Counted from the stretch's first letter, positions 15,711-57,795 are shown. The stretch: DNA of 64,000 nucleotides from Minisyncoccia bacterium (GCA_049997875.1 JBEKRC010000001.1:108609-172608); one strand, 5' to 3'. Notes: generated by a model not told the origin, from the sequence alone. Numbers and translations are program-made.

Positions 15711-15711
15711 G

Positions 15712-16376: not shown

Positions 16377-16504
16377 TTTATTACAATGTATTCTACGGAA
16401 AAAGTTTGAAAAACGCAAGGTAGAATGCTACATTATTATTACGTTTCCGGCGCGTTATAGTTGCAACGAGTATTGTGACAAGGCACCCGGGAACAGCGCG
16501 CGGT

Positions 16505-17374: not shown

Positions 17375-17545
17375 GTATGAGATTGGCAATGAAAGGTGAT
17401 GATTTTGGGCGAGACAAGAGATTTTAACATCGTCCAAGCCTGGGGAGTGAAAAGTGAGAGTTGCTTGACACAAAAACTTGTCGGTACTACCCTCTTCCTA
17501 GGATTCCAGTAACATTCAAAGTCCGTGCAGAGGAGGTGTAATCCA

Positions 17546-17767: not shown

Positions 17768-17793
17768 GACGGAGAAGAAGGAGGAATAATTGC

Positions 17794-18096
17794 ATGGAAC
17801 CAGGCACTGAAACCGGAAAAAGTATCACGCTCAGCCTTACTTTCTCCCCCGAGGGATACCGCGAGTTGCAAGAACTCCAGAACGTCACGGGGCTTCCCAC
17901 AAGGGCGTTGTTATTCAGGCACGCATTGCGATGGCTCCAATGGACTTGCGAGGAAGTCATAACCAAGGAAGGGAAAATCCTTCTCCAACGGGAAGGAGAA
18001 GAAGACCCAGTAGAGGTCGTGTTTCCCCCCTGGCTCAACATTGATCCTCAAGACCTCGAACGACTACTTGTCGATGAGCCGCCCTCTCCTCCGTAG
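17794..18096 (+). CDS. Hypothetical 100-aa protein
   Basis: A strong AGGAGGAATAATTGC-ATG ribosome-binding site. Product is MEPGTETGKSITLSLTFSPEGYRELQELQ...; no family recognised. It sits in a lower-GC region. Confidence 0.45.
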   Translation: MEPGTETGKSITLSLTFSPEGYRELQELQNVTGLPTRALLFRHALRWLQWTCEEVITKEGKILLQREGEEDPVEVVFPPWLNIDPQDLERLLVDEPPSPP

Positions 18097-18461
18097 AAGG
18101 CGGCTTTTCCATTAATCAAACAGGTTTTCATACTGTCCAGCCACCAGATCATTTTTATCCTCAACATTTCTCGGTCATTAAATCCGGGATCGCAAATTTG
18201 CTGCCTTTTTCTCCGAAAAAGGACCCTGATATCAGATACCAACCCGCTCCAATTGTATAAAAATAAAACAGCACCCGACACAAAGTGGGGTGCATGTTCT
18301 AATTTCGCTCGATATGCCCGAGCATGAGCAAGTTGGCGCTATGCCAACGGTTCCGGCGGAAGCCGGAGAAAAAAACCTTTCGTACATGCCAAACTACCGC
18401 ATTTAGTTTAGCACGCTACGCCGTCCCGCCGGCTTATATTGTGGACAATCTCTGGACAACG

Positions 18462-29399: not shown

Positions 29400-30515
29400 T
29401 TATGTCTTCGCGAACGGATTCTGCGCTCCGTATACCTCAAAGTGCACGTGGCAGCCGGTTGCATCGCCGGTCTCGCCCATAAGCCCGATGACCTGTCCTT
29501 GCTTCACGTAATCTCCGATCTGCACCAGTATTTTTTCCAAGTGAGCATAGCGCGTGCGTACGCCGTCGCCGAAGGGATGCTCTATAAAAACAAAATTGCC
29601 GTAGCCCTCGTTCCAGCCGCCGATAGTGTCCGGGATGGCATCGTCGGGAACGACGAGCCCCTCGGCCGCGGCAACCACCGGAGTCCCGCACGAATTTGCA
29701 ATATCAACCGCGTTGTAGTGATGGAGGATCCCCCAATCGTAGCCGTTGGTAGGCATGATGAAATCCCCGTTGAGGTCCGGGAGCACGGAAGCGCTCGCGA
29801 GAATGGCAGCGTCCGTGCCGCCAGGTATGATAACCGGCGTTCCTGCATCAAGCGAACCGAAATTCACGCCCTGATTAAACTGCACTATTTTATCTTGAGG
29901 GATCCCGAACGAATCGGAGATTGACTCAAGCGTATCTCCGCTCTTTGTCTGGTACACCACGCCGGAGGTCGGCAATATTTTCAATTTCGTGCCGACCGCA
30001 AGCGCGGCAGCTCTCACGTCGGGGTTCGCGCTCACAATGGTATCAACCGAGATGCCGAAATTGGAGGCGATCTGTGAAAGCGTGTCTCCTTTTTGAACCA
30101 CATACGAGATCATGCCCGACCGGTCAAACGCGGGGCCGATCGGTGTTCCCGTGTCCTTTATCGCAGCATTATCGGAACTTTCGGAGGGAGCGATTTCTGC
30201 AGCTGCCGAGACAGAGCCAGAGCCGGGATCCCCGGGAAAAGTGGCACTGCCTGAATCTGTAGGAGCTACCCCGTCATTCGCGAGAAGCGCCGCGGCCGTC
30301 CCCTCAAACCCCGCGCCTTCGGCATTTGCGACGAAAGACGGAGAAGAGGCAGGGCCTCCGAGAACCCCCCGTTCCTCCGCGGGTCCGGTCTTCCCCGAAA
30401 ACCAGGCGCTTGCAAGAAGACACCCCATAACCAAAAAAGCAGCCACGGTTAATGGCTTATCTTTCCCATATAATTGTTTTACTATCGTACTAATAGAGAT
30501 AAGCATAGCATACAT
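29400..30515 (-). CDS. LysM-domain M23-family peptidoglycan metalloendopeptidase
   Basis: Two LysM repeats (YVVQKGDTLSQIASNFGISVDTIVSANP; YQTKSGDTLESISDSFGIPQDKIVQFN) and a C-terminal M23 domain (GNFVFIEH...HLE...TGCHVHFEV). An N-terminal signal anchor is present. The start is uncertain because it overlaps the pcrA start. Confidence 0.8.
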   Translation of the reverse strand: MYAMLISISTIVKQLYGKDKPLTVAAFLVMGCLLASAWFSGKTGPAEERGVLGGPASSPSFVANAEGAGFEGTAAALLANDGVAPTDSGSATFPGDPGSGSVSAAAEIAPSESSDNAAIKDTGTPIGPAFDRSGMISYVVQKGDTLSQIASNFGISVDTIVSANPDVRAAALAVGTKLKILPTSGVVYQTKSGDTLESISDSFGIPQDKIVQFNQGVNFGSLDAGTPVIIPGGTDAAILASASVLPDLNGDFIMPTNGYDWGILHHYNAVDIANSCGTPVVAAAEGLVVPDDAIPDTIGGWNEGYGNFVFIEHPFGDGVRTRYAHLEKILVQIGDYVKQGQVIGLMGETGDATGCHVHFEVYGAQNPFAKT

Positions 30516-33338: not shown

Positions 33339-33368
33339 CAACGCCATTGCGCTATAATTGGAATATCA

Positions 33369-35552
33369 ATGAACATCAAGAAGTTGATCACTTCTTTTCT
33401 TATCCTAGCTGCGCTTGCCGCTTCGTCGGCGCTGCTCCTGTCAAACGAAAATTGGTTCTCCTCTTCTCGCAGTCCCGCGGCGCAGGTCTCGTTAGGTAAC
33501 GACGAAAGCGCGCCGCCGATCGCGAGCAATAATGCCTTTCTACCAACGACCCCGCAAGGTGCGGGCATCACGCAAGACGAAAACGACGATTCCGCCGCCG
33601 TAGACGACCCCAACAATCTCACCGGCGTGGTCGTCAATTCTTTCATGAACAACATTCTTGCCTCAAACCCTTCGGGACCGCAGCAAAACGCCAATGGCGA
33701 TGACACGCTCACCTTCAACCCCAACGAGGACCAGATGACGGGCGCGCTTGCCCAGAGCGCCACGCTTCAGCACTTATACATCCCGAATTGGGATCTTGAC
33801 GCGCTTGAACAAAAACTCAATATCGCGACCACCTCTTCCCCCGATGATATCGCGAACTACAGCGATGCCCTCAACGGCATTTTTAATAAAAATTTCGTGA
33901 GTTCCGGCGTTCTTACCATTGCGAACGGGGATAACGCCGATATAGGCAGCGCTCCTCTCATGGCATCCTCAACCGACGCCGCCCTCGCGGCCACTGCCCA
34001 GCTTCGAACGCCCGCGAATCTCGTGGACTTCCAAAAAAGTCTGGTAAAGGTACTTGTGTATCAGAAAAACGCCCTCGCTCTTATTGAAGGCACAAGTGGC
34101 GACCCCGTCAGGGCATCGCTCATCTTCCAAGCCCAGGAACCGAGGTACAACGCCGCCCTGCAGGATTTTGAGAATGAACTGCAAAAGGCGCAATCCAGTG
34201 GAACATTTTCGTTCGGTAATGTTCCCGCGCGCAGCGGCACCGGATGGTCCGCCGCGGTTCTGGGCCTCATTGGGATACGAACCGCGTATGCCCAATGGCC
34301 GACGTTTGACTTTAGTGTTTTCGCGAACCAAATAGAGCAGTTCATTAAAACCATCCTTCTTCAGATCGTGAAGAACTCTCTGATCAGCTTCATTCAGCAT
34401 AAAATAGTAAGTTGGATATCCAATCCCAAAAATCCAAAGTTCATCCAGCAGTGGGGAGGGGAGTTATCAAACGCGTTCGTGGCAGCGGCCAACAGTACGC
34501 TTTCACAAATAAGCCCGAACCTTTCCCCGTCGTTCGGACCCTTAGTAGGCTCTGCGCTTAAACCCCAAAAGAGTGCGGTATCCGGCATCCAATCAACTTT
34601 AGATAACGACTTAGCGAACCTCGGGACAAACCAACAAAATTTCTACAACAACTTCAGCCAGGGAGGCTTTGATGCATATTTTGACCTTTTTAAACCGGAC
34701 AACAACTTCTTCACTGCATTTATGGATACGCAGGATGCCATGCTTGCCGCCGGCGGCAAGTCGGCGCAAACCGCACAAACGAAGGCGGTTGCCGGCCAAG
34801 CCAGCCGCGGCAACCAACTTTGCAGCGACGGTAGCAATCCTTACGCAACCCACATGGGTTGCGACGAAGGATCTCTCGCAACCACCACCTACGGCAATGA
34901 GTGTATGTCCATCGGCGGCACCCCGCTCGGCCCCCCGGACAAAGTTAACAACGGGGGACTTTGCGCCAACGGTGACGATCCTACCGTCACGTCCCCGGAC
35001 CAAGTAACAAAGGCGATTCAAAGCGCAGGCCTCAAAAGTCCCATTGACCTTATCGTGAACGGCGACGACGTTACAGGACTCGTGATCGCGATGACAGAAT
35101 CGGTTCTGACGAACCTTGTGAACCAAGGCCTCAATGCTGTGGAAACTGGCCTTTCCGGCGCACAGAACCCGTCGCCCGCGACCGTCGCCGCAGATAACGC
35201 AGCGGTGAACGGCACCGTAGCCAGCAGCACGCCGCCGGCACAACCCGTCACCTGCATGCCGAAATCGCAATCGGCCACGATCGCGCTCGGAAGCAGCAAT
35301 CAGGCCTATGTTACGTTCGAGGTCACCGGCGGCGTCATGACGGCAACCAGCACAAACCCAACGTATACCTGGACCGCAAACTGGCCAGTTGGAGGAGCGT
35401 GGGGAGTGTGGGGAAGCACGGGGACGGGAACCGGAAGCACCTTCTCGGTGACTTTCACCGCGAATACCGCGGGGACGTACAACTATACCGCTACCGTGAC
35501 CGCTTCGCCGGGCGGCAGCGACTTCTGCCAGGTCCAAATTACGGCATACTAG
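33369..35552 (+). CDS. Large secreted or membrane-anchored hypothetical protein (727 aa); first gene of the T4SS-like operon
   Basis: An N-terminal signal/TM segment (ITSFLILAALAASSALLL), a long Asn/Gln/Ser-rich body, several Cys pairs, and a C-terminal Thr/Gly-rich beta-rich region. No family recognised. Confidence 0.6.
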   Translation: MNIKKLITSFLILAALAASSALLLSNENWFSSSRSPAAQVSLGNDESAPPIASNNAFLPTTPQGAGITQDENDDSAAVDDPNNLTGVVVNSFMNNILASNPSGPQQNANGDDTLTFNPNEDQMTGALAQSATLQHLYIPNWDLDALEQKLNIATTSSPDDIANYSDALNGIFNKNFVSSGVLTIANGDNADIGSAPLMASSTDAALAATAQLRTPANLVDFQKSLVKVLVYQKNALALIEGTSGDPVRASLIFQAQEPRYNAALQDFENELQKAQSSGTFSFGNVPARSGTGWSAAVLGLIGIRTAYAQWPTFDFSVFANQIEQFIKTILLQIVKNSLISFIQHKIVSWISNPKNPKFIQQWGGELSNAFVAAANSTLSQISPNLSPSFGPLVGSALKPQKSAVSGIQSTLDNDLANLGTNQQNFYNNFSQGGFDAYFDLFKPDNNFFTAFMDTQDAMLAAGGKSAQTAQTKAVAGQASRGNQLCSDGSNPYATHMGCDEGSLATTTYGNECMSIGGTPLGPPDKVNNGGLCANGDDPTVTSPDQVTKAIQSAGLKSPIDLIVNGDDVTGLVIAMTESVLTNLVNQGLNAVETGLSGAQNPSPATVAADNAAVNGTVASSTPPAQPVTCMPKSQSATIALGSSNQAYVTFEVTGGVMTATSTNPTYTWTANWPVGGAWGVWGSTGTGTGSTFSVTFTANTAGTYNYTATVTASPGGSDFCQVQITAY

Positions 35553-35555
35553 CGC

Positions 35556-38183
35556 ATGAAAAAGGAAACCTCTGTGCGGAAAAACTTGCTAAGAATTGTC
35601 GCTGTCTCGTCCCTATTGATCCTTTTTGCATCCCTCGTGCCGATCCATCTCGCGCGCGCCAATTGGCTCACGGAAGGCCTCGGTCAAATCATAGACTTCA
35701 CCTACACGGTCATTGGGAAGATTGTTTTTATAATTGGCTTCTTGTTTGCCTTCATTGTTGGCATAGTCATAGCCATTGAGGCATGGATTGTCGGAGTCAT
35801 CCTCAACATGAACAATGGCGTCTTTGATGCGGCGGTGGTACAAACCGGCTTCCAGGTCAGTCTCTCTATCGCCAACATGGGGTTCGTGCTGGGAATCATC
35901 ATCATCGCAATCGCGACCATATTAAAAAGGGAAACCTACGGCATAAAGCAACTGCTGTGGAAACTGGTGGTCGCGGCAATCCTCGTGAACTTCAGCTTAG
36001 TCATCATGGCCCCCATTTTTGGATTCGCTAACAACCTCACGTTATATTTCCTAAACTGCGTTAACCCGGGCGGAGGAGGGTGTGGCGGGAATGGAAGCGC
36101 CCTTACGAGTGATGCTGATTTCGCAAAGGCAATCGCAGGCGCATTCAACCCCCAAAAGAGCTTCTTGTCCCTCAACACCCTTAACGCTACTTCAAGTACG
36201 CAAGTCCAGCCCGGGCCGGCCGTTACGGGCTTCTTTGGGACTGTTGGAGGAGATATCAGCAAAATTCTCGTTCCCATCTTCTCGGTCCTCTTCATAGCAG
36301 CCACGCTTGTGGTAATGGCTATTGTGCTCGCCGTTTTTGCATTCATGCTACTTGTTCGTTATGTGTATATCGCGATACTCGCGGTACTTGCGCCGTTCGC
36401 ATGGCTCATGTGGGTTTTCCCCAAAACAAAGCATCTTTGGGACCAGTGGTGGGACACCTTTATTAAATGGACTATGTTCGCGCCCATTGTCGTTTTCTTC
36501 ATGTATCTCGCGGTGGCAACGGCGACCCAGATGAGTTCCGGGAATACCACCGGCACCCAAACTTTCGCGGTCTATACCGCCGCTAACAGCAACACGCTTT
36601 GGGCAACAATTTCCCAATTCTTTGGCAATCTGCTTACCCCCATCATCCAAAACGCCCTAAATGAATTCGTCCTTGTCGGTCTCATGGTTGGCGGCATGAT
36701 CGCGGCGGAGAAGATGAGCATCATGGGCGCGAGCGCCGCGGTAGGTGCGGCGAAGTCGGTGGGCAACGCCGCGAAGGGCTACGTAGGAAAACAAACCAAG
36801 AAGGGTGCGCGGTATACATACCAGCATGCTAGAATCCCATTCACCCAGGTTACTGGCACAAGAGTAAGCGAAGCGTTGCAAAGAAGCAGAATCCCACTCG
36901 TTTCGGCAGCCGGAAGAAAGGTGGCAGGTCTTACGGAAGCAGGAGGGAAAGATCTCGTGGCTAAGGCCGCAAAAGATCTTGATGTGGACGGCATGAGTAA
37001 AGAAAAATTGGTTCGGGCGACAGAAGGAGCGAGAGGAAATGACAACACGCTCGCGCTCATTCAGCGAGCTCAGAAGGAAGGGTGGCTGGGTTCGCTTAGA
37101 AGGGTGGGCGGAGAAAAGGACCTCAGCACCTGGATGCAAAAGAATCAGCAAACCTTTAAGGACTACGATCACGGGAAGCTTCAGGGCGATGTTAACGATT
37201 CTCTTATGTCGAACGAGATCATGAGGAAGATTGCCGCAGCGCAGGGGAAGGCTGAGGGCACCGCGCGAGTGGCCGATACACAGGGAATTCTAGGAACGGC
37301 AGGGGCCGACGTCTCCGCGCGAACATTGCAAGAGACCAGCAATACCTTAGAAAAGGATATAGCAACGGCCAAGGGAAATGCACAGGCTTCTGCCCAGATT
37401 ACCGACGCCCACGGAATTTTGGGAACCATGAATGCCACGGTATCAGCCCAAGAATTGAAAAAGGCGAGCGAGGCTTTCCTGGAAGACATTGGGAAGGTAA
37501 ATCTTAATGCTCTCGACGACAGGGATATAATCAACTTCAGGGGACTGCATATGAGCGTTGCCGGCCTTAAACAGGAAAAGAAGGATGCGCAGGCCGATAT
37601 AGTTATGGCAGATTTGGCGATGGATGGCGCCGCAAGAACCGGGACGATGAACTTCCAAGGAAATAACGTCGCAATAGCAGACGTTGAAAGGAAGGTGGCT
37701 GATGCAAAAACGGCCGCAAACGATGCAATGCGTCATGCCGCAGACACTACAACGGTTGATGGGATGGCGGGCACAGCTGGAGACCTTATGCGCAGAGAAG
37801 CGGAAAAATTCTTCGCTGGTAAAGATAGAGCCAATTTCGCAAGGGCGCATCCCGAGGACATCTTTGGTGGGGTGCCCAAATTCGGCCTTTCCGAGCAGGC
37901 GATTGGCGCCCTGAGCCAGGCGGTTGCGCACGGTATCGCCATAAAAAATCCGCAGCTGACGCCCTCCGTGGTGAGTAAGCTTGACAACAAAGAAGCCCTT
38001 GACCGTTTCGACAACCGCTATAGAGCTGCCATTAATAGTGCCCCAATAAGCCAAGCCGACAAAGATATTTTGCTCAGGCGCCACGAACAGACTATGATTA
38101 GGCGCTACTATGTAGATGTCGGCGGTGGAGGCGGAACGAGCTCTACGCCCGCACCTGCCCCAGGTCCCTCGGGAACACCCTAG
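35556..38183 (+). CDS. VirB6/TrbL-like polytopic membrane protein with a C-terminal hydrophilic repeat-containing extension of about 500 aa
   Basis: The N-terminal 380 aa or so contain about 8 hydrophobic helices, with an architecture like VirB6/TrbL. The C-terminal half is Ala/Gly/Lys/Asp-rich and carries internal 40-aa repeats (...DTQGILGTAGADVSARTLQE... / ...DAHGILGTMNATVSAQELKK...). The call rests on topology and operon context; no diagnostic motif was seen. Confidence 0.5.
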   Translation: MKKETSVRKNLLRIVAVSSLLILFASLVPIHLARANWLTEGLGQIIDFTYTVIGKIVFIIGFLFAFIVGIVIAIEAWIVGVILNMNNGVFDAAVVQTGFQVSLSIANMGFVLGIIIIAIATILKRETYGIKQLLWKLVVAAILVNFSLVIMAPIFGFANNLTLYFLNCVNPGGGGCGGNGSALTSDADFAKAIAGAFNPQKSFLSLNTLNATSSTQVQPGPAVTGFFGTVGGDISKILVPIFSVLFIAATLVVMAIVLAVFAFMLLVRYVYIAILAVLAPFAWLMWVFPKTKHLWDQWWDTFIKWTMFAPIVVFFMYLAVATATQMSSGNTTGTQTFAVYTAANSNTLWATISQFFGNLLTPIIQNALNEFVLVGLMVGGMIAAEKMSIMGASAAVGAAKSVGNAAKGYVGKQTKKGARYTYQHARIPFTQVTGTRVSEALQRSRIPLVSAAGRKVAGLTEAGGKDLVAKAAKDLDVDGMSKEKLVRATEGARGNDNTLALIQRAQKEGWLGSLRRVGGEKDLSTWMQKNQQTFKDYDHGKLQGDVNDSLMSNEIMRKIAAAQGKAEGTARVADTQGILGTAGADVSARTLQETSNTLEKDIATAKGNAQASAQITDAHGILGTMNATVSAQELKKASEAFLEDIGKVNLNALDDRDIINFRGLHMSVAGLKQEKKDAQADIVMADLAMDGAARTGTMNFQGNNVAIADVERKVADAKTAANDAMRHAADTTTVDGMAGTAGDLMRREAEKFFAGKDRANFARAHPEDIFGGVPKFGLSEQAIGALSQAVAHGIAIKNPQLTPSVVSKLDNKEALDRFDNRYRAAINSAPISQADKDILLRRHEQTMIRRYYVDVGGGGGTSSTPAPAPGPSGTP

Positions 38184-38204
38184 CCAGTTCCCTCCACAGA
38201 AACC

Positions 38205-39389
38205 ATGATTACTATCACAACACAACAGGCACGGAACCGATGGGATTATCTTACTGAAGCCCTCCGCTTCGCTCTATTTTCCGATGTGAACGCTGACTTC
38301 ATTATGAAAACCTGCGAGCAGGAACATCTCCCCTTAGAGAAAGGACTGGACGTCCTTGCGATTTCTGGCTATGTGCTTCTTGGTTTCCTTCATCCGGAAG
38401 ACCTCGCCGGCGAACTAAAAGATGAATTGAATCTGGACATCAAGATCTGCACCCCTATCGCGGCCGCGATAAACTCAAGGGTTTTTTCACCTTTGAGGCA
38501 AGACATAGACAAAGTTTACGAACCCCTAAGTAAGTTGGCTGCAGGTCCGAAAATAATCCGAGATGTCGGTCCCGTACCCATGGCGGCGAAACCAGCAGCG
38601 CCCATTGCGCCCGCGCCAAAGGCGGAACCTGTGCCCACACCAAAAATGTCCGACGTAGGATGGTCGCAAGCGATGCCGAAACAGCCGGCGGTGAAATTGG
38701 GCCAAGCCGCAACGCCGCCGCCAGTGGTGCCAAGAGCACCAGCGGCGCCCGCGCCTCTCACCCCAACTACAATACCACCTACGCGGGGACCCATTGGTGA
38801 GTTTGAGCGACTCGCAGTGAAGCGCAGCGAGGGAATTGTGCCTCCTGCTCCACTTTCCGGTACTCCGAAGCCATCTGTTCCGCCCATCCCGCCTGCGCCA
38901 TCACGGCCCGCAACTCCTGTCGCGCCACCTCCGGGACCCGCGCCGTTGATCCTCCATGAAGACACATCAGCCAAGCCGCAACAGCGGGCGCCGGATTTCC
39001 ATTTTGATCTTCCCTCGGAAAAATTTACTGCGCAAAAGGGGTCCGCGTCGTTACCGATAAGGCCAGCAGTGGTTGAATTCGGCAAGGTGCCTCCGCCGCC
39101 CGCACCAAAAACGGTCGTCTCAACGCCGCGCGTTGTCCACTACACGGAATACAAATCTCCTTCGCCAGAAAATCCCACGCCTTCAGGTCCCGCAGCGCAA
39201 AGAAAAATAACCGAGCTTACCGCAACGCCATCGACGCAACCATCAACCTCGTTAAAGACGCCGGTGCTGCCCACGCCGTTGAAGGCGCTTCCCTCCGAAC
39301 CGACTGCGCCGGAGCTCCCCATGCCGCCGAAATTTCCGACCACGCCAACTCCGCCGGTACCACCGCCTCCACCATCAAAAAATAATTGA
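38205..39389 (+). CDS. Proline-rich hypothetical protein (394 aa)
   Basis: An N-terminal region of about 100 aa is followed by an extended Pro/Ala/Thr-rich low-complexity region (PAAPAPLTPTTIPPT...PPVPPPPPSKNN). No signal peptide is evident. Confidence 0.5.
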   Translation: MITITTQQARNRWDYLTEALRFALFSDVNADFIMKTCEQEHLPLEKGLDVLAISGYVLLGFLHPEDLAGELKDELNLDIKICTPIAAAINSRVFSPLRQDIDKVYEPLSKLAAGPKIIRDVGPVPMAAKPAAPIAPAPKAEPVPTPKMSDVGWSQAMPKQPAVKLGQAATPPPVVPRAPAAPAPLTPTTIPPTRGPIGEFERLAVKRSEGIVPPAPLSGTPKPSVPPIPPAPSRPATPVAPPPGPAPLILHEDTSAKPQQRAPDFHFDLPSEKFTAQKGSASLPIRPAVVEFGKVPPPPAPKTVVSTPRVVHYTEYKSPSPENPTPSGPAAQRKITELTATPSTQPSTSLKTPVLPTPLKALPSEPTAPELPMPPKFPTTPTPPVPPPPPSKNN

Positions 39390-39479
39390 CGGGATGGCGG
39401 ACGGCGGACAAAAACGGACGAAGGAATCCTCCGGTTCCTGCCGGGGCTTTGGCGGCAAACTTGGGCTATAATATAGTGA

Positions 39480-40010
39480 ATGCAATTCCAGGTCCCGCAA
39501 TTTATAGATACGGAGGATAAGATCGTGGGGCCCTTGTCGCTCCGGCAATTCATTTACATCGGCATCGGCGCGGGCATCTCCGCCTTGCTTTATTTCATAC
39601 TCCAGACGTGGCTGTGGGCTATTCTTTCATTCTTCCTTGTGGGCGGCGCCATTGCGATCTCATTCGTAAAAATTGAAGGGAGGCCGCTTCCCAAAATCAT
39701 CCTCTCGGCATTCTCCTTCTATTGGAACCCGCAAACGTACGTGTGGCAGCCGGAACATCCGGCGGTCCAAAAGCATAAGACGCCCCCGGAAGCGAAGCCG
39801 ATCAAAAGCAGCGTTCTTGAGAAGATCGCCATGGGCATGGCGCTCCACAAGAGCTGGGAAAAGGTCCAGGTGGGGGTAAAACCGAAGGCAAAGGAGCCCC
39901 AGAAGAAGCCCCAGAAGAAGCTCAAAGAACAAAAAGTGAGCGGCCATTACGAGATCTTCCGAAAGCTCGCCGGCGACCGCGAAGCGGCGCGGAGAGTGGA
40001 CTACCGCTGA
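39480..40010 (+). CDS. PrgI/VirB3-like small membrane protein
   Basis: MQFQVPQFIDTEDKIVGPLSLRQFIYIGIGAGISALLYFIL plus a second TM helix fits the two-helix PrgI/VirB3-like architecture. It sits immediately upstream of the VirB4 homologue. Assignment is by architecture and position. Confidence 0.5.
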   Translation: MQFQVPQFIDTEDKIVGPLSLRQFIYIGIGAGISALLYFILQTWLWAILSFFLVGGAIAISFVKIEGRPLPKIILSAFSFYWNPQTYVWQPEHPAVQKHKTPPEAKPIKSSVLEKIAMGMALHKSWEKVQVGVKPKAKEPQKKPQKKLKEQKVSGHYEIFRKLAGDREAARRVDYR

Positions 40011-40032
40011 TAATGATGAGAAAATACAAACG

Positions 40033-40710
40033 ATGGCGTCAAAACAGGATCTTGGCAATTCCCTTGACCTTGTAAGCATCAAGGAGATCAGGAACAACAC
40101 GGCCATTCTTAAGGACGGCAGTATGCGGCAGGTCGTCCTTGTGGGCGGCGTGAACTTCGCGCTCAAATCGGAATCGGAACAAAATCTCCTCACGGGAGGG
40201 TACCAAAATTTTTTGAATGGCATTGAGTTCCCGCTGCAGATCGTGGTGCACTCGCGGAAGGTGAATATTGACAAATACGTGCAAGGGCTCCTCGCGCGGA
40301 AAGAGGCGGAACAAACCGCGCTGCTCCGGAGCCAGATTGACGAATACGTTGAATTCATAAAGGGATTTGTGGAAAAGAACGCGATTATGGAAAAGACGTT
40401 TCTTGTGGTCGTTCCTTTTTATCCACTGAGCATTGTGTCAACAAAAAAAGCCGTGGGCTTTCTCCCGTTCTTTAAAAAGAAACAGGACAAGGAGACGGAA
40501 ACAAAGGACGCAGCCGAGACCGAGCGCATCTTCCAGGAAAATCTGGCGCAGCTCATCCAGCGCACGAGCCAGATCACAACCGGGCTTCTCGGCATGGGGC
40601 TTGAGGCAACCGTCTTGAACGACGAAGCGCTCGCGGAACTTTTCTACAACTTCTACAATCCGCAGACCATTGAACGAAAGGATATGGCCCTGCCGAAAGA
40701 AGAAAAATGA
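40033..40710 (+). CDS. VirB4-family N-terminal domain (5' part of a split or frameshifted VirB4 gene)
   Basis: The 225-aa product ends 4 nt into the next ORF (ATGA overlap, different frame). The downstream ORF lacks roughly 200 aa N-terminal to its Walker A compared with full-length VirB4/TrbE proteins of about 800 aa. Confidence 0.45.
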   Translation: MASKQDLGNSLDLVSIKEIRNNTAILKDGSMRQVVLVGGVNFALKSESEQNLLTGGYQNFLNGIEFPLQIVVHSRKVNIDKYVQGLLARKEAEQTALLRSQIDEYVEFIKGFVEKNAIMEKTFLVVVPFYPLSIVSTKKAVGFLPFFKKKQDKETETKDAAETERIFQENLAQLIQRTSQITTGLLGMGLEATVLNDEALAELFYNFYNPQTIERKDMALPKEEK

Positions 40711-42446
40711 ACAATATGCCCGAGAATCACAATCAACTCAAAGATATAAAACAAATCATCGCGCCAGCGGGAGCGCAGGTGTTCCCCAACTACCTCAAAA
40801 TCGGCGACAAGGTTGCGAAGACCTTTTTTATACTTTCTTACCCCCGCTACCTTGCGACTGGCTGGTTTGAGCCGCTTATCAACCTCCCCAACCTTTTTGA
40901 CGTTTCCATTTTTGTAAATCCGATTGATACGGGCACGGCGCTCAAAAATCTCCGCAAGAAGGCCGGCCAGCTGGAGTCGCAGCTGAATGACGAGGAGGAC
41001 AAGGGTCTCGTGCGCAATCCGATGCTGGAGACCGCCATCAAAGACGTGGAGGGGTTGCGCGATTCCCTCCAGGAATCGCAGGAGAAACTTTTTGACACCG
41101 GCGTCTACATCACGATCTACGCGGACACCCAGGACGACCTCGTGCGGTTGGAGAGCAAGCTCGTGAGCATGATGGAAGCGAAGCTCATTTATCTGAAACC
41201 GGCGCTTTTTGAACAGCTGGAAGGGCTTTTCTCGGTCCTTCCGCTCAACGAGGACAAATTGCAGATATATACGCCGATGAACACAAGCCCGATTTCCTCT
41301 TTTTTCCCGTTCGTTTCGGAGGACCTCTCCTCAAATCAGGGAATTATGTACGGCATTAATTTGCACAACAGCAACCTCGTGATCTTTGACCGCTTTTCGC
41401 TGGAGAACGCGAACCAAGTGGTGTTCGCAAAATCCGGCTCCGGCAAGTCGTACACTACAAAACTGGAGATCATCCGCTCGCTCATGGCGGGCGTGGACAT
41501 GGTGATCGTGATTGACCCGGAGAACGAATATCAGCGACTCGCCGAAACCTTCGGCGGCAGCATGTTCAACATCTCGCTTTCGGCGCACGAGCACATCAAC
41601 CCGTTTGACCTCCCGCTCGTCCCCGAGGGTGAAACGCCGTCCGACGTCCTCCGGTCGCACATTGTGACGCTCGCGAGTTTGATCAAGCTTATGTTGGGGA
41701 AAATCACCCCCGAAGAGGACGCTATCCTTGACCGCGCGATCACGGAAACCTACGCCTCGCGCGAAATCGTCGTTGGATTGGATTTCGCGGGAAAAGAACC
41801 GCCACTTCTGGGAGACCTCGCCACCGTTCTTCGCAACCTTGAGGGGGGCAGGGGCATGTCGGAGAAACTCTACAAATACACCGAAGGAAGCTTCGCGGGG
41901 CTCCTGAACCAGCCGACCAACATTGACGTCAATAACCGCCTCATCGTCTTCTCCATCCGCGACCTTGAGGAAGAGCTGCGTCCCATCGGGATGTTCGTCG
42001 TCCTCAACTTCATCTGGAGCCTGATCCGCGCGAAACTCGCAAAGCGGCTGCTCTTCATTGACGAGGCGTGGATCATGATGAAGAATGACGACTCGGCCAC
42101 GTTCCTTTTCGGCCTCGTGAAACGCGCACGGAAATATTTTCTCGGCGTTTCCACGATCACGCAGGACGTGGAGGACTTCCTGCGCTCTCCCTACGGGCGT
42201 CCCATCATCACGAATTCATCTCTGCAAATGCTTTTGAAGCAGGCACCGGCGACGATTGACATCGTGGCGAAAGCGTTCGACCTTACGGATGCGGAAAAGA
42301 ACTTCCTTTTGAGCGCGGAGGTGGGTACCGGAATCTTCTTTGCCGGCAAGCGCCATGTCGCGATCCAGATCGTGCCGTCTTATTTTGAAGACCAGATTAT
42401 CACCACGAATCCGGAGCAGCTATTGGAGGAGAAAAAAGACCTGTAA
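40707..42446 (+). CDS. VirB4/TrbE/CagE-family type IV secretion ATPase (C-terminal ATPase part)
   Basis: Walker A VVFAKSGSGKSYTTK, Walker B RLLFIDEAWIMM, and flanking VirB4-like conserved blocks (NSNLVIFDRF; HINPFDL; GVSTITQDVEDF). Confidence 0.8.
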   Translation: MNNMPENHNQLKDIKQIIAPAGAQVFPNYLKIGDKVAKTFFILSYPRYLATGWFEPLINLPNLFDVSIFVNPIDTGTALKNLRKKAGQLESQLNDEEDKGLVRNPMLETAIKDVEGLRDSLQESQEKLFDTGVYITIYADTQDDLVRLESKLVSMMEAKLIYLKPALFEQLEGLFSVLPLNEDKLQIYTPMNTSPISSFFPFVSEDLSSNQGIMYGINLHNSNLVIFDRFSLENANQVVFAKSGSGKSYTTKLEIIRSLMAGVDMVIVIDPENEYQRLAETFGGSMFNISLSAHEHINPFDLPLVPEGETPSDVLRSHIVTLASLIKLMLGKITPEEDAILDRAITETYASREIVVGLDFAGKEPPLLGDLATVLRNLEGGRGMSEKLYKYTEGSFAGLLNQPTNIDVNNRLIVFSIRDLEEELRPIGMFVVLNFIWSLIRAKLAKRLLFIDEAWIMMKNDDSATFLFGLVKRARKYFLGVSTITQDVEDFLRSPYGRPIITNSSLQMLLKQAPATIDIVAKAFDLTDAEKNFLLSAEVGTGIFFAGKRHVAIQIVPSYFEDQIITTNPEQLLEEKKDL

Positions 42447-43318
42447 TGGCCGAGGCGGCGACACAACCAAAATCAGAATCTGCGCCTCCCGCGGGCGGAG
42501 GTGCGGCGCGATCCCAGCCGAAAATCACGCTTACCGAGGGACTTCTCATCGGAGGCGGTCTTACTGTGGTGTGTGTCATCAATCTCATACCGATTGCTGG
42601 TGACATAACGGCGCCCGTCGCCGGCGGATTGATGTTTTTTTACCTTTATATGAAAGGATTAAGGGGAACTAATGTCGTCGCTACCAATATAGTCGGTTAT
42701 GCCGCCGGGATGTTCCCGATTGTCCAGGCACTTCCAACCCCACTCGTTGCCTGGGTTGTCGTGATAATTATTGACCGGATGCCCGTGGTTGAAAAAATCG
42801 CCGAGAAGGCAGAAGTGGTAACGGGAGGAGGCGAGGCGGGTGCCCTCGGCGGAGCCGCAGCGGAGGGTGCGGCAGTAGAAGGTGCAGCGGTTGAGGGAGC
42901 GGCCGCGGGAGGGGCGGCGGGAGCTACCGCCGCTGCAGAAGGAGTGCCAGCCGGAGCCGCAGGTGGCGCGCCCTCGGCGCAAACTGGCATCTCCGAAGGC
43001 GGTGCCACAGGACCACCGCCCGGCACGGAAGGACCCACGACGCCGGAAGCGGGAGGCCCCTCGCCGATAGCCGGCGAAGAAATGCCCCCGGGAGAAGCAG
43101 GAGCAACAGAAGAAGGGGCCGGCAAAGAAGCGGAAGCGGAAAAAGAATATCGAGAAATCGAGGCGGCGGCGGCACCTGCAATGGTCCCACCGGTGGAAGC
43201 GGCTATAAAGGAAGAATTCCCATCGGAGGCGGCGGGGATCCAGGCCCTTACTGAAAAGGCGAAGGAAACACAAGCAACTGAGGATAAGGCAGAGGACGAA
43301 GAAGAACCTGCGAGCTAG
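42446..43318 (+). CDS. Membrane protein with an Ala/Gly/Glu-rich low-complexity C-terminal half
   Basis: 2-3 N-terminal hydrophobic helices, then GGGEAGALGGAAAEGAAVEGAAVEGAAAGGAAGATAAAEG... and an acidic tail. Its start codon overlaps the VirB4 stop. Confidence 0.5.
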   Translation: MAEAATQPKSESAPPAGGGAARSQPKITLTEGLLIGGGLTVVCVINLIPIAGDITAPVAGGLMFFYLYMKGLRGTNVVATNIVGYAAGMFPIVQALPTPLVAWVVVIIIDRMPVVEKIAEKAEVVTGGGEAGALGGAAAEGAAVEGAAVEGAAAGGAAGATAAAEGVPAGAAGGAPSAQTGISEGGATGPPPGTEGPTTPEAGGPSPIAGEEMPPGEAGATEEGAGKEAEAEKEYREIEAAAAPAMVPPVEAAIKEEFPSEAAGIQALTEKAKETQATEDKAEDEEEPAS

Positions 43319-43346
43319 GTCGCATGCCGCGTGTGATACAATATAA

Positions 43347-44048
43347 GTGAAGGCTGCTATGAAAAAAGAATTATTTGGTGTTCTTTGCGTCGCCACGCTT
43401 TTCGCTCTCCTCGGATGGGTCCGCGGGGTAGCGGATGCCCAAACCTCCGGTTCGCAGGTCTTCATCACGTGGCAAGCCGTTGGCAGCTATGTGCCAGCTT
43501 CTTATAAAGACAAAGCTCTGCCGGGACCTACCTCCTTAATCCTCGCGTCCGTTCAGGTCGTTTCACAGGGGAAGCTCGTTGATCTTAAAAACCAGCTTGT
43601 GTACTGGTACCAAGACGGCACTTATTTGAGCGGCGGGACGGGGGCGCAAAGCATCACGTTCACGCCGGGCGTTTCTCCGCCCGACACCACGGAATTGAAA
43701 GTGGAAATCCCGAATTACAGCGGCGGGACGCTCCTGCACGCAGTGGACATCCCCATTGTACAGCCCGTCATTGTAATCAAAACCCCGTATTTGAACAATC
43801 AATTCTCCGATAACCCGCTCACGCTCACGGCGTTGCCATACTTCTTCAATGTGCCTTCTCCTTCAGCACTTGTACTCTCATGGTCGGTAAACGGACAGAC
43901 AGGAGCCAGTGCGGAAAACCCGTACGAAGCGCAAATTACTCTTCCGCAGGGCACTTCCGCGGGGACGACGCTCAGTGTCGCGCTTACCGCACAAAATCCT
44001 CTTGATGCCACCTCGGCAACCGCTTCAAAAGTCCTTACGTATGAATAA
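43347..44048 (+). CDS. Secreted hypothetical protein (signal peptide; 233 aa)
   Basis: MKKELFGVLCVATLFALLGWVRGVADAQ is a signal peptide. The body is Thr/Ser/Gly-rich and beta-rich. Confidence 0.5.
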   Translation: MKAAMKKELFGVLCVATLFALLGWVRGVADAQTSGSQVFITWQAVGSYVPASYKDKALPGPTSLILASVQVVSQGKLVDLKNQLVYWYQDGTYLSGGTGAQSITFTPGVSPPDTTELKVEIPNYSGGTLLHAVDIPIVQPVIVIKTPYLNNQFSDNPLTLTALPYFFNVPSPSALVLSWSVNGQTGASAENPYEAQITLPQGTSAGTTLSVALTAQNPLDATSATASKVLTYE

Positions 44049-44376
44049 AATGAATAGCTTAGCGGTACAATTCACCGTTTCTTCAAATCTCCCGGGTAAC
44101 TATGCCACCTCAACCGGCTTTGGGGGCTTTGTCGCCAATTTCTATTCCCTTGCGCTCCTTTTCGCGGGAATCCTTGCCTTCGGCGCGATCGTCTACGGCG
44201 GCATTAAGTATGCGGTGAGTCGCGGCAACCCCTCGGCCGAGAGCGAGGGAAAAAGCTGGGTCACGAACGCGCTCCTCGGGCTCCTGCTCCTGGCCGGCGC
44301 GTACATCATCCTCTATACCATTAATCCGCAGCTCGTTACCCTTAAAATCGCGACACCGGCACAATCACAACCATGA
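44041..44376 (+). CDS. VirB2/TrbC-like two-helix pilin candidate (111 aa)
   Basis: Starts at ATGAATAAAATGAATAGC. It has two hydrophobic helices (FYSLALLFAGILAFGAIVYGGI and WVTNALLGLLLLAGAYIILYTI) separated by a short polar loop, which is the VirB2-like hairpin topology. The track ORF 43909-44376 is N-terminally over-extended. Confidence 0.45.
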   Translation: MNKMNSLAVQFTVSSNLPGNYATSTGFGGFVANFYSLALLFAGILAFGAIVYGGIKYAVSRGNPSAESEGKSWVTNALLGLLLLAGAYIILYTINPQLVTLKIATPAQSQP

Positions 44377-45653
44377 GAAGGCGTATTCTTATCGTTATTG
44401 TCGTTCTTGTTATCGCAGGGGCCGCGGCAATACTCTATCTTCTTCTTTCCAAACAATCTTCCGTTTCTACGACGCCGTCCGGTACGTCGGGCGCTTTGCC
44501 TCAAACAGGAACCCAGTCGGGAACCCCGGGAAACGCCGCCGGGGGTACTGTGGTAACCTTTCCCGGCACCGGGATAACCGGCGCAGGTGCTGCCGTAAAA
44601 TTCGGGGTGGTATCAAACGAGCCGGTTTTTGACTATTTCGTGGACGCAAAAAATAACGCACTAGCCATTGAACCTGACGGGAAAATCGCGTACATCACGA
44701 ACGGCGAGGTGAGCTACCTCAATTCCAACACGATCCAAAACCTAATCAGCGCCGATTTCTCCTATGATGGCGCGAAGGTAGTAGTGAACTTCGGTGATAC
44801 AACAAACCCACAAACCAGTGTTTTTGACGTCGCCGCAAAGGCGTGGGCGCCCCTTCCCTCGGGAATTATTTCGCCCGTCTGGTCTCCGATTGATTACCAT
44901 CTCGCGTACCTGGAGGCCGCGACCGGGACCACCACCTTATTCCTGATTGACGGATCAAAGGCGGGCAGCAAGCCGACGCAGCTTGCGACATTCAGCGCCG
45001 TTGATCTCTCCCTTAGATGGATTGATAAAAACCGGCTCATGGTCTACGGCAAGCCCAGCGCCTACGCGGACCCCTCGGCGTGGATTTTTAATCTCACCTC
45101 AAAGGCTGTCACGCCGATCATAAGCGAAACGCCGGGGCTTGAAATAACGTGGATGAAGGCGCCCACCACCACCACTGGTATCTCCTTCTTTAGCGGCCAA
45201 GGAGGAAGGGGAGGAAGTGTGCACCTTATAAACATAACGGGCGCCGTGACTAAGGACCTTAGCTTCTTCACGCTCGCCTCAAAATGCGTTTTCAACTTTG
45301 AGGCTGTGGCGGCCGTTCCTTCTGCTGTTTTAGCCACGACGACCGCCACTTCCACTGCCGCAACCCCCGTTTCGCCTGCGCCCGTCCTCGCGCTCTACTG
45401 CGCCGTGCCCCGTGCCGGGCAGGACCTTCTCGCCTTTAGTCATCTCCCCGACGATTATGAACAGATGGCATTGTTCACCCTGGACGACATTTATCGCATT
45501 GACACCACAAACGGCGCGCTTGTTGACGCGCTCGCCGGGCAGAATATAGATGTCTCGGACCCAAAGGTGTTTGGCGCAGCCCTCTTCTTCGTCAACCGCT
45601 ATGATCAAAAACTCTACGGGCTCTCGCTCGGCACTTCCACCGCCGCGCAATAG
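44373..45653 (+). CDS. N-terminally membrane-anchored extracytoplasmic protein (426 aa), possibly a beta-propeller
   Basis: A TM helix (ILIVIVVLVIAGAAAILYLLL), then a Thr/Gly-rich linker, then repeats with weak TolB-like character (IEPDGKIAYI; PVWSPIDYHLAYL). It is the last gene of the co-directional operon. Confidence 0.5.
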   Translation: MRRRILIVIVVLVIAGAAAILYLLLSKQSSVSTTPSGTSGALPQTGTQSGTPGNAAGGTVVTFPGTGITGAGAAVKFGVVSNEPVFDYFVDAKNNALAIEPDGKIAYITNGEVSYLNSNTIQNLISADFSYDGAKVVVNFGDTTNPQTSVFDVAAKAWAPLPSGIISPVWSPIDYHLAYLEAATGTTTLFLIDGSKAGSKPTQLATFSAVDLSLRWIDKNRLMVYGKPSAYADPSAWIFNLTSKAVTPIISETPGLEITWMKAPTTTTGISFFSGQGGRGGSVHLINITGAVTKDLSFFTLASKCVFNFEAVAAVPSAVLATTTATSTAATPVSPAPVLALYCAVPRAGQDLLAFSHLPDDYEQMALFTLDDIYRIDTTNGALVDALAGQNIDVSDPKVFGAALFFVNRYDQKLYGLSLGTSTAAQ

Positions 45654-47249: not shown

Positions 47250-47384
47250 TTAGACGCTGATTCGCCGCCTCCTTTTTGCCCTGCGCCGTGCGAGAACGCG
47301 CCGCCCGCCTGGCACCCGTTGCCGCCGCAAAAATCCGTGCGTCCTTTTCCTTTTTTTCTTTTTCGGGCTGTAGGTAAACGACAT
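47250..47384 (-). CDS. rpmH: 50S ribosomal protein L34
   Basis: [44 protein letters not shown] (44 aa). The start was taken at the internal Met of the over-extended track ORF 47250-47555. Confidence 0.85.
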
Positions 47385-53966: not shown

Positions 53967-54003
53967 TGCATTACCATCATAGCGCTTGTTAAAATCAATG
54001 GGA

Positions 54004-55686
54004 ATGGCTGACCTCACGCAAGACAACCTTCAAACGAGACTGACGAAGCTCCGGCGCGAGGGCGAAGAACGCGCCGCGGAGCGGCTCGCGAAAAAGCTCG
54101 GCCTCCCTTACGTGGACGTCGCCAAGATGCCGGTTTCGCTTGACGCGGTGAAGATTATCCCGGAGGACAAGGCGCGAAAGGCCCGGGTGGCGAGCATTGA
54201 GTTGAGATCAAAAAAGCTAGCCGTGGCGGTAGTGGACCCCGAGTTTTCCGCGGCGAAGGTGCTTATTGCGGAATTGAAGGCGGAGCAATACGAGGTGAAA
54301 ATGTTTGTGGCGTCCCCTTCCGGTTTGGAAGTGGCATGGCAGTTGTATAAATTCGTAAAACCGGCGTCCGCGGGGATTACTGGCAAAGTGGTCATTACCG
54401 AAAAGAGGATCAAAGAGCTCACGGAGCGCCTTGCGAACCTGGATGCCATTCGCAAAGAATTTGCCGGGCTGGATTTTGAAAACGTATCGCCGGTCGCGAT
54501 AATTGAAATTATACTCGGGGGGGCGCTTACGATGCGCACGTCGGACATTCACACAGAAGCGGGGGAAAAAGCGGCGAAGATCCGTTTCCGGATAGACGGC
54601 ATCCTCCATGATGTCTTTGATGGCATACCGTTCCGCGCCTACCACGCGCTCGTATCGCGCATTAAACTTCTTTCGGAAATGAAGCTTAATGTCCGCGACG
54701 AAGCACAGGATGGAAGGTTCACGATTGTCATCGCGGGGAAGGAGGTGGAGATGCGTGTGGCGTTGATGCCCGCCGAATTCGGCGAAGCCATCGTTATGAG
54801 GATCCTCGATCCATCCGCGACGAAGGTCGGGCTTCCGGACCTCGGGCTTCGTGAAGATAACCTGACGCTCGTCACGCGCGAACTCGCCCGTCCGAACGGG
54901 CTCATCCTGAACACCGGGCCCACGGGCTCCGGGAAAACGACGACGCTCTATGCGTTCCTCCGCACGCTGAACAGCCCCGACATCAAGATCATCACGCTGG
55001 AAGACCCCATTGAGTACCGCATTGAAGGGATTGAGCAGACGCAGGTGAACGACGAATCGGGATATACCTTCGCAAGCGGTCTCCGCGCCATTGTCCGGCA
55101 GGACCCCGACGTGATCCTCGTGGGGGAGGTGCGTGACCTTGAGACGGCAGACATCGCTATGCAGGCGGCGCTTACGGGCCACATGGTGCTTTCCACGCTC
55201 CACACAAACGATGCGGTGGGCGCCGTGCCGCGGCTCATCAATCTTGGCGTGAAGGCAGTAAGCATCGGACCGGCGCTCACGCTCGCGATTGCGCAGCGCT
55301 TGGTGCGCGTGCTCTGTCCTGACTGTAAAAAACGCGCGGAGCCGGACGATGCGCTCAAGGCGAGGATTAAAAAATTCCTTGACGGATTGCCGGCCAAGGT
55401 GGATAAATCAAAATACCAGAATTATTCGGTGTACGAGGCCGCGGGCTGTACAAAGTGCAACGGCATCGGGTATAAAGGTCGGGTAGGGATCTTTGAATTT
55501 TTGGAAGGAGGGCCGGACCTTGAGACGACGATCCTTAAGGAAGCGTCGGAGGTCGCGCTTCGCGCGGTGGCCGAACGGCAGGAAATGGTCACCATGCAGC
55601 AAGATGGCATTCTGAAGGTACTTGAAGGGAAGACGACGTGGAGCGAGGTCACAAGTGTGACCGGTCAAATAGAATGGGCGGGGTAG
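54004..55686 (+). CDS. pilB: Type IV pilus assembly / type II secretion ATPase, GspE/PilB family
   Basis: N-terminal GspE_N-like domain, Walker A NTGPTGSGKTTTL, Asp/His boxes, and a tetracysteine motif (CPDC...CTKC). The start is uncertain (54004 chosen rather than 53986, which collides with the yebC start). Confidence 0.8.
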   Translation: MADLTQDNLQTRLTKLRREGEERAAERLAKKLGLPYVDVAKMPVSLDAVKIIPEDKARKARVASIELRSKKLAVAVVDPEFSAAKVLIAELKAEQYEVKMFVASPSGLEVAWQLYKFVKPASAGITGKVVITEKRIKELTERLANLDAIRKEFAGLDFENVSPVAIIEIILGGALTMRTSDIHTEAGEKAAKIRFRIDGILHDVFDGIPFRAYHALVSRIKLLSEMKLNVRDEAQDGRFTIVIAGKEVEMRVALMPAEFGEAIVMRILDPSATKVGLPDLGLREDNLTLVTRELARPNGLILNTGPTGSGKTTTLYAFLRTLNSPDIKIITLEDPIEYRIEGIEQTQVNDESGYTFASGLRAIVRQDPDVILVGEVRDLETADIAMQAALTGHMVLSTLHTNDAVGAVPRLINLGVKAVSIGPALTLAIAQRLVRVLCPDCKKRAEPDDALKARIKKFLDGLPAKVDKSKYQNYSVYEAAGCTKCNGIGYKGRVGIFEFLEGGPDLETTILKEASEVALRAVAERQEMVTMQQDGILKVLEGKTTWSEVTSVTGQIEWAG

Positions 55687-57222: not shown

Positions 57223-57795
57223 ATGGTCCTCATCAACGAATGGCTGCCGAATCCGGTAGGCGCGGACGCGGCAGGAGAGTGGGTTGAACTTTGGAACGGC
57301 GGCGGCACGGCGGTGGATTTGAAGGGGTGGGTTTTGAAAACCGAGAACGGCAAAAAATTTTCGCTCACAGGGCAGCGCATCTCCGCGCACGGCTATCTGG
57401 TGCTAAAAAGAACCGTAACGAAGCTGTCCCTGCGGAACACGGATGGGGGACTTGCGCTCTATGATGCGGGCGGCGCATTGGCGGACCGGGGGAATTTTGA
57501 CGGCAGCGCGCCGGAAGGGCAAAGCTTTTCCCGCGCCGATTACGCAATGGGACCAGCGCAGCATTTCGCATTCGCGGATCCAACGCCGGCCGCGCCGAAT
57601 GCGACCGCGCGCAGCGCGGTTGTGGTCCGCGGCTATCCCGCCGCCGTCCCGCTGAACCGCGGGTTCACAAACGCCGCATTTTCCACGATAATGGTGGGAA
57701 CTGCGGTGTTGCTCGCAGGACTCATCATTTATGCCATTAAGGCGAACGAGGACCTATCAAAGCTTTTCTTCGGAAGGGACAAAAACGCTCGGTGA
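57223..57795 (+). CDS. Lamin-tail-domain (LTD) protein with a C-terminal TM anchor
   Basis: LINEWLPNPVGADAAGEWVELWNGGGTAVDLKGWVL matches the LTD signature. A C-terminal hydrophobic helix (IMVGTAVLLAGLIIYAI) is present. Confidence 0.7.
   Translation: MVLINEWLPNPVGADAAGEWVELWNGGGTAVDLKGWVLKTENGKKFSLTGQRISAHGYLVLKRTVTKLSLRNTDGGLALYDAGGALADRGNFDGSAPEGQSFSRADYAMGPAQHFAFADPTPAAPNATARSAVVVRGYPAAVPLNRGFTNAAFSTIMVGTAVLLAGLIIYAIKANEDLSKLFFGRDKNAR

Follow-up and report, generated by a model that had tools for sequence, protein, structure and literature searches.

Patescibacteria are epibionts with very small genomes and may account for a quarter of the diversity of bacteria. Among the few large machines retained by all of them is a type IV secretion system (T4SS), which proved essential in the only species tested. 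We analyzed a 64,000-nucleotide (nt) stretch from a Minisyncoccia bacterium (GCA_049997875.1, JBEKRC010000001.1:108609-172608; hereafter the window) and focused on ten genes at 33369-45653, which had been predicted from the sequence alone to encode a minimal T4SS-like apparatus (the original prediction). We found that the cluster is the already published Patescibacteria T4SS; the main finding of the original prediction is correct and not new, and the cluster does not represent a new kind of system. It is a resident, vertically inherited core locus, not an integrative conjugative element (ICE) or a recently acquired element. By analogy with related machines, it most likely serves as a host-contact conduit and not in conjugation.

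The ten open reading frames (ORFs) all lie on the + strand and are tightly packed, with intergenic distances of -8 to +90 nt and four overlaps, and the predicted coordinates proved exact (Table 1). They encode a PrgI/VirB3-like protein, a split VirB4 (a TrsD-like protein and a CD1110-family ATPase), an extended VirB6-like protein (O2), a VirB2-like pilin, and five accessory proteins (O1, O3, O7, O8 and O10). A signal peptide or transmembrane (TM) segments are present in seven of the ten. Independent gene calls on an identical metagenome contig gave the same products, except that O8 is 229 amino acids (aa) there. The mechanical ORF for the pilin begins at 43909, and the gene itself spans 44041-44376.

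Among the motor genes, VirB4 scored 386.6 bits with the NCBIfam CD1110 family model (2.3e-115; cut-off 325) and matched PDB entry 4ag5 (1.2e-39), and its translation contains a Walker A (GSGKS) and a Walker B (FIDEAW) motif. More than 8000 homologues were found; the best 120 are 81-100% identical, and the named sources among these 120 are all Paceibacterota, Minisyncoccia, Pacebacteria or Patescibacteria-group. The 225-aa product of the preceding ORF, whose stop overlaps the VirB4 start by 4 nt, aligns to the N-terminal ~200 positions of VirB4 models and to TrsD/TraD (VirB4_plasma, 2.1e-8, profile positions 103-219; TIGR00929, 5.1e-6, positions 20-192; TrsD/TraD, 1.1e-5), and its orthologues carry PF26593, a TraC-like domain. 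PrgI exceeded the PF12666 cut-off of 27 bits with a score of 42.9 (E = 7.6e-11). As relatives we used 80 species-representative genomes fetched through VirB4; the TrsD-like protein was found in 75 of 75 eligible loci and PrgI in 74 of 74. Four of the related loci (L023, L041, L042 and L045) carry the TrsD-like part and VirB4 as a single ORF of 768-800 aa, located at ~9.3-11.7 kb in L041, L042 and L045. Judged from these alignments we take the split of VirB4 to be real, and it is lineage-specific, because the two parts are one ORF in these four loci.

VirB6 was identified through its orthologues. The window protein itself had no Pfam or NCBIfam match, while 7 of 47 syntenic orthologues matched Pfam TrbL/VirB6 (PF04610; best 1.1e-6) and the L082 orthologue has a precomputed TrbL_3 match. 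A hydrophobicity scan placed 7-8 hydrophobic segments in aa 14-389, followed by a hydrophilic helical C-terminal domain of ~480 aa, and we therefore describe O2 as a putative "extended" VirB6/TrbL-like protein. The pilin has two hydrophobic helices and matched PF18895 (T4SS_pilin) by a narrow margin (2.1e-6; 28.2 bits against a cut-off of 26.6). Relatives carry one to four pilin genes at this position. In one of them, L083, four T4SS_pilin genes stand in a row (13290-19569) and the propeller gene is missing; this locus is rearranged, with a tyrosine recombinase, rpsO and pnp following the cluster in place of jag-yidC-dnaA. Taken together, profile searches recovered T4SS components beyond the ATPase, namely PrgI, the TrsD-like protein, the pilin and, via orthologues, VirB6. 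The parts named by the original prediction were thus upheld: a VirB4-family ATPase with Walker motifs, split in two; a PrgI/VirB3-like protein; a polytopic VirB6/TrbL-like protein with a large C-terminal extension; a two-helix VirB2-like pilin of about 111 aa; and a Pro-rich protein, which is O3.

The accessory proteins had been thought to lack recognizable families. This did not hold, since orthologue profiles revealed immunoglobulin (Ig)-like, PKD and TolB-like propeller domains. O1 has one N-terminal hydrophobic segment, and syntenic orthologues were found in 28 of 50 eligible loci. Its conserved core lies at aa ~305-600, and a profile of this core finds 3840 representative clusters (E up to 1e-3), with family members ending in PKD/Ig or discoidin/galactose-binding-type (F5/8-type-C) domains. 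The AlphaFold2 (AF2) model of O1 is only partly confident (pLDDT 57) and gave no fold match. In proteobacterial systems the VirB5 position is immediately upstream of VirB6, and the O1 gene lies directly upstream of the VirB6 gene. Three O1 relatives gave sub-threshold matches to DUF4141 at the same helix, and in Bacteroides conjugative transposons a DUF4141 protein adjoins traJ. From this we infer only that O1 is a candidate surface adhesin, or "VirB5-position adhesin". O3 has no hydrophobic segment and is probably cytoplasmic; a conserved N-terminal domain of ~110 aa precedes its Pro-rich region, 32 syntenic orthologues were found, and the protein had no Pfam or PDB match.

The three remaining accessory genes lie downstream of virB4. 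O7 combines a conserved N-terminal domain of ~100 aa (2-3 TM segments) with a variable, low-complexity acidic/Ala-Gly tail, and a homologue directly follows virB4 in 57 loci by jackhmmer, compared with only three by tblastn; we predict it to be a conserved small membrane protein. O8, found in 45 of 65 eligible loci, has a signal-peptide-like N-terminus, and its orthologues match BiPBP_C (12 of 50) and PKD (3 of 50), which points to a secreted Ig-like protein. O10 has a single TM segment (aa 5-23) and two invariant cysteines. Its family profile matched a TolB propeller in PDB (7e-11) and its orthologues match PD40/WD40 models, the single-sequence AF2 model being unusable, and O10 is thus predicted to be a membrane-anchored TolB-like beta-propeller. 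A further gene, for a LysM-M23 peptidase, lies 3 kb upstream of the cluster on the opposite strand. A homologue occurs within 10 kb upstream in 12 of the 80 loci, often directly beside ksgA, and the survey of Quinonero-Coronel et al. (2025, Microb Genom; PMC12102498) reports VirB1-like proteins containing LysM/M23 near virB4 in Paceibacteria. This peptidase is a candidate cell-wall hydrolase and a plausible stand-in for VirB1, and its association with the cluster is tentative.

Table 1. Genes of the T4SS cluster and the LysM-M23 peptidase gene upstream (columns: gene or product, position in the window, strand, length or principal evidence)
O1	33369-35552	+	727 aa; predicted secreted, with signal peptide, helical region, Cys-containing core and C-terminal Ig/PKD-like beta domain
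O2, putative extended VirB6/TrbL-like protein	35556-38183	+	875 aa; polytopic, with hydrophilic helical C-terminal domain
O3	38205-39389	+	394 aa; no TM segment; conserved N-terminal domain and Pro-rich region
PrgI/VirB3-like protein	39480-40010	+	176 aa; PF12666
TrsD-like protein (equivalent of the VirB4 N-terminal domain)	40033-40710	+	225 aa; NCBIfam VirB4 models, TrsD/TraD
VirB4-family ATPase (P-loop-containing C-terminal two thirds)	40707-42446	+	579 aa; NCBIfam CD1110
O7, predicted small membrane protein	42446-43318	+	290 aa; jackhmmer homologues after virB4
O8, predicted secreted Ig-like protein (BiPBP_C/PKD-type)	43347-44048	+	233 aa; domain matches of orthologues
VirB2-like T4SS pilin	44041-44376	+	111 aa; PF18895
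O10, predicted membrane-anchored TolB-like beta-propeller	44373-45653	+	426 aa; family profile against PDB
LysM + M23 peptidase	29400-30515	-	Pfam Peptidase_M23 7.4e-27, LysM 1.5e-23

We compared the position of the cluster across the relatives. The arrangement ksgA-O1-O2-O3-PrgI-TrsD-VirB4-O7-O8-pilin-O10-jag-yidC-rnpA|dnaA-dnaN recurs in order and strand across Paceibacteria, in up to 80 related genomes and down to 54% VirB4 identity. In the window, pcrA and ksgA lie upstream, and jag, yidC, rnpA, rpmH, dnaA and dnaN follow directly, with the dnaA start 1.9 kb past the cluster. VirB4 is more conserved than DnaA, at a median identity of 61% compared with 52%, and the G+C content of the cluster, 0.53-0.57, falls inside the range of 2-kb windows across the stretch (0.43-0.585); its composition is native. 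Domain scans of 40 other window ORFs, among them every ORF of at least 300 aa, detected no VirD4/coupling protein, relaxase or integrase; these ORFs encode FtsH, ClpP, NusA, TyrS, H+-PPase, RuvB, PyrG, a class A penicillin-binding protein and others, and are housekeeping genes or had no match. With the conserved order and strand, a VirB4 more conserved than DnaA and the native G+C, we conclude that the cluster is a vertically inherited core locus and not an ICE. On each of these points, the lack of DNA-processing genes nearby, a composition matching the genome, the adjoining yidC-rnpA-rpmH/dnaA region and a resident chromosomal apparatus, the earlier reading stands.

Close relatives differ strongly in parts of the cluster. 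The comparison covered three sets of related genomes: the window with its two sister genomes L001 (OY970382.1) and L082 (Group A), the four genomes L083-L086 (Group B) and the pair L087 and L088 (Group C). Within Group A, the flanking genes and PrgI-TrsD-VirB4 share 87-97% protein identity, except ksgA (82% to L001, replaced in L082), and 13-30% of their four-fold degenerate sites in conserved residues differ. In contrast, protein identity falls to 27-53% for O1, O2, O8 and O10 and to 56-61% for the pilin, with four-fold differences mostly of 53-82%, near saturation (lower, 44%, for the pilin against L082). DNA similarity is lost sharply, near gene borders, in two blocks (~33359-38640/38775 and 42446, or 43267, to 45580), which comprise O1, O2 and the N-terminal part of O3 (O3N) on one side of PrgI-TrsD-VirB4 and O7 to O10 on the other. 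The alleles are also incongruent, in that O7 is common to the window and L082 and not to L001, and the replacement of ksgA is confined to L082. For O1, O2 and O8, the window resembles the sister genomes no more than it does genomes with a DnaA of only 68-73% identity. In Group B, O1, O2 and O8 fall into two allele groups that contradict the housekeeping relationships. In Group C, only O2 looks replaced; identity is 69-87% among the remaining accessory proteins, with four-fold sites diverged by ~0.45. This pair gives a baseline for clonal evolution and indicates that replacement is frequent, not universal.

We conclude that PrgI-TrsD-VirB4 follows the clonal frame, and that the motor genes are highly conserved whereas the surface-exposed parts are deeply divergent between relatives. 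The mosaic is most simply read as recombinational exchange in envelope and extracellular modules around a clonal ATPase core, or as long-term maintenance of ancient alleles in these modules. As a general property, Patescibacteria T4SSs might consist of a clonal PrgI-TrsD-VirB4 motor and two exchangeable cassettes (O1-VirB6-O3N and O7/O8-pilin-propeller), whose alleles are far older than the genomes and are reshuffled through homologous recombination, the breakpoints being sharp and at gene borders. We give this generalization slightly less than even odds, because the sample is small, with two informative groups, and metagenome assemblies can be strain chimeras. We did not find the mosaic described in those parts of the Patescibacteria T4SS literature that we draw on. 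If cassettes are indeed exchanged, the envelope and extracellular parts would form a host-recognition, perhaps host-range-determining, module of the epibiont, and the T4SS would touch the host surface directly. The mosaic thereby turns host contact by the machine, and a link between its exposed parts and host specificity, into a testable idea.

The ten genes had been regarded as one operon, which is doubtful because -10-like boxes precede several internal start codons. TATAAT, TACAAT or TATACT hexamers at 33353-33358, 39468-39473 and 43338-43343 end 7-9 nt before the starts of O1, PrgI and O8, with no Shine-Dalgarno sequence visible at these starts. In relatives (loci L001-L082) the boxes have this offset at 8 of 11 O1, 34 of 75 PrgI, 17 of 21 TrsD and 6 of 13 O8 starts. 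A generic promoter scan performed at chance level. The boxes point to several internal promoters and to leaderless or near-leaderless mRNAs, and away from a single operon.

Two reviews call the function of the Patescibacteria T4SS "completely unknown". Wang et al. (2023, Cell; PMC10633639) report that the genes SEML1_0006-0019 of Southlakia epibionticum are essential for epibiotic growth by transposon sequencing, and that this cluster contains pilins and lacks coupling and relaxase proteins. The explanation that we favor, with a probability of roughly 0.8, is that the cluster encodes the Patescibacteria T4SS as a minimised derivative of monoderm (MPF-FATA) conjugation machinery, which gained a VirB2-like pilin, lacks DNA-processing partners and acts as a host-contact conduit and not as a conjugative element. 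Here, a VirB4 ATPase made of two polypeptides, the TrsD-like protein and the P-loop part, would dock on the membrane via PrgI/VirB3, O7 and the extended VirB6, and would drive a short pilus or conduit of VirB2-like pilin to assemble through the thin wall, possibly with help from the nearby LysM-M23 hydrolase. O1 (helical and PKD/Ig), O8 (Ig-like) and O10 (TolB-like propeller) would engage the host-cell surface, and macromolecules could then pass between host and epibiont in one direction or the other. Assembly, pilus formation, host contact and transport are steps that we infer by analogy. Host contact is suggested by the seven proteins with a signal peptide or TM segments, by the Ig-like, PKD, discoidin and propeller domains, and by the deeply diverged alleles in the blocks that hold the exposed parts.

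Several points weigh against this explanation. No VirB8-like (PrgL/TraM) or VirB1-like (PrgK/TraG) protein was identified in the cluster, as a sequence-level search of the ten proteins gave no Pfam, NCBIfam or PDB-sequence match, and the envelope-spanning architecture is therefore guesswork. The O1 model gave no fold match, and no pilus has been seen. Essentiality has been demonstrated only in Saccharimonadia. A coupling protein may lie elsewhere in the genome; distant VirD4 homologues occur in many Patescibacteria according to the phylum survey (PMC12102498). Finally, the accessory genes of Group C other than O2 are not replaced, and the variable blocks also hold the VirB6 C-terminal and O3 N-terminal domains, which are probably cytoplasmic, so that variation is not limited to exposed parts.

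We considered four other accounts of the cluster. A VirB2/B3/B4/B6 set could form a machine that, like ComB or Ced, pulls in host or environmental DNA for nucleotides or genes, and the phylum survey speculates about import of DNA or other macromolecules (PMC12102498). Having VirB2, VirB3, VirB4 and VirB6 without VirD4, VirB11 or relaxase amounts to the ComB subset that a monoderm would need, Patescibacteria lack nucleotide synthesis, reviews have proposed such a role, and the dispensability of comEC in S. epibionticum implies that another nucleotide route is needed. Yet ComB needs ComEC for the inner-membrane step, whereas the T4SS is essential and comEC is not; CedB and CedD models match only the P-loop of VirB4, far below their cut-offs (CedB 3e-8, 32.7 bits against 700); the ten proteins gave no Pfam or NCBIfam match to the VirB7-VirB10 core or ComB7-10, and no CedA homologue was found; and nothing in the sequence indicates DNA binding. 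We consider DNA import unlikely. Export of effectors, in which the machine would inject proteins into a host bacterium or archaeon to subvert it, was suggested by Wang et al. on the ground that coupling and relaxase proteins are missing (PMC10633639). Ptl and Brucella VirB are precedents for effector transport without a coupling protein, and deep allelic diversity of exposed parts would fit an arms race with the host. Against this, neither candidate effector nor toxin-immunity genes were found in or beside the cluster, its neighbors being housekeeping genes, and there is no recognizable substrate receptor; we regard effector export, too, as improbable.

A VirB4/VirB6 core could also do no more than assemble a VirB2-type pilus, with O1, O8 and O10 as adhesive parts and without any transport. 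The pilin gene, the pilin arrays of relatives, the adhesin-type domains (PKD, discoidin, Ig) in members of the O1 and O8 families and the high variability of the exposed modules would all be expected of an adhesion organelle. The same region, however, also carries genes for a PilB-type ATPase and an N_methyl pilin; in Saccharibacteria such type IV pilus components already provide adhesion and motility, and the retention of an extended VirB6 channel protein suggests a translocon, making adhesion alone very unlikely. That the cluster is a decayed ICE, having recently lost its relaxase, coupling protein and integrase or carrying them beyond the window, might be read from a VirB4 family named after conjugative elements (CD1110) and from the plasmids matching VirB4, most of which (2105 of 2993) are conjugative. 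This account is effectively excluded by synteny, with the same order at the same site beside dnaA in dozens of species-level genomes; the native G+C, the constraint on VirB4 and the 40 scanned ORFs without a mobile-element domain also oppose it, as does the survey's finding of relaxases near virB4 in only 15 genomes (PMC12102498).

The rest of the window contains several further genes. Type IV pilus-related genes include a PilB/T2SSE-type ATPase at 53986-55686 (+), and a pilin-like protein with an N-terminal methylation motif (6695-7372, -) is encoded beside a dCache-domain protein (7369-8724, -). A stretch of lower G+C (0.45 against ~0.54) holds the gene for a 614-aa polytopic membrane protein (10067-11911, -), which has a large non-membrane domain at its C-terminus and gave no Pfam match. 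The rpmH gene (L34, 44 aa; ~47250-47384, -) sits inside a longer mechanical ORF between rnpA and dnaA, and proteins with a lamin-tail domain (57223-57795, +) and an ORF6N domain (63044-63577, +) are encoded among housekeeping genes. A 463-aa ORF at 1463-2854 (-), which overlaps thyA on the opposite strand, is probably spurious.

Among known systems, Helicobacter pylori ComB resembles the cluster in its VirB2/B3/B4/B6-type parts, its lack of VirD4, VirB11 and relaxase, and its chromosomal location. ComB differs in having a VirB7-10 outer-membrane core, in working with ComEC and in not being essential, and we found no direct sequence affinity to it. The archaeal Ced system (CedA/A1/A2/CedB) likewise combines a polytopic membrane protein, small TM proteins and a VirB4/HerA-type ATPase without a relaxase, but Ced has no VirB2-like pilin and the window cluster has no CedA homologues. 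Closer are the MPF-FATA conjugative T4SSs of monoderms (pCF10 Prg/Pcf, pIP501 Tra, pGO1 Trs and CTn2/CD1110), which share the CD1110-family VirB4, PrgI and TrsD homologues. Unlike them, the window cluster has no detected relaxase, coupling ATPase, VirB8-like or VirB1-family hydrolase, is fixed in the chromosome and vertically inherited, and has a VirB2-like pilin, which is absent from monoderm systems. In a tblastn search against plasmids, the best VirB4 matches came from Streptomyces, Embleya, Bacillus and Clostridium at 30-36% identity, and these nearest Firmicutes and Actinobacteria VirB4s agree with a monoderm ancestry.

The closest counterpart is the Patescibacteria T4SS, known from S. 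epibionticum and from the phylum survey (PMC10633639, PMC12102498), to whose VirB4 clade the window protein was assigned from model score and homologue names. The survey places the Patescibacteria VirB4 clade as sister to monoderm MPF-FATA, names TrsD as the commonest VirB4 partner, alongside PrgI/VirB3, VirB6 and VirB2-like pilins with almost no relaxases, and locates Paceibacteria virB4 near dnaA, dnaN, rnpA, ksgA and rpmH. The window differs in having a single pilin gene instead of an array of six, and in carrying the LysM-M23 gene upstream on the other strand instead of hydrolase genes directly downstream of virB4. Neither its accessory set O1, O3, O7, O8 and O10 nor the folds of these proteins were found named in the published descriptions as excerpted. 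The window offers a clean Paceibacteria example with a full parts list. Common to the window and the published systems are separate TrsD-like and VirB4 proteins, PrgI/VirB3, VirB6 and one or more VirB2-like pilins, encoded without a relaxase or coupling protein nearby at a chromosomal site beside dnaA, dnaN, rnpA, ksgA and rpmH.

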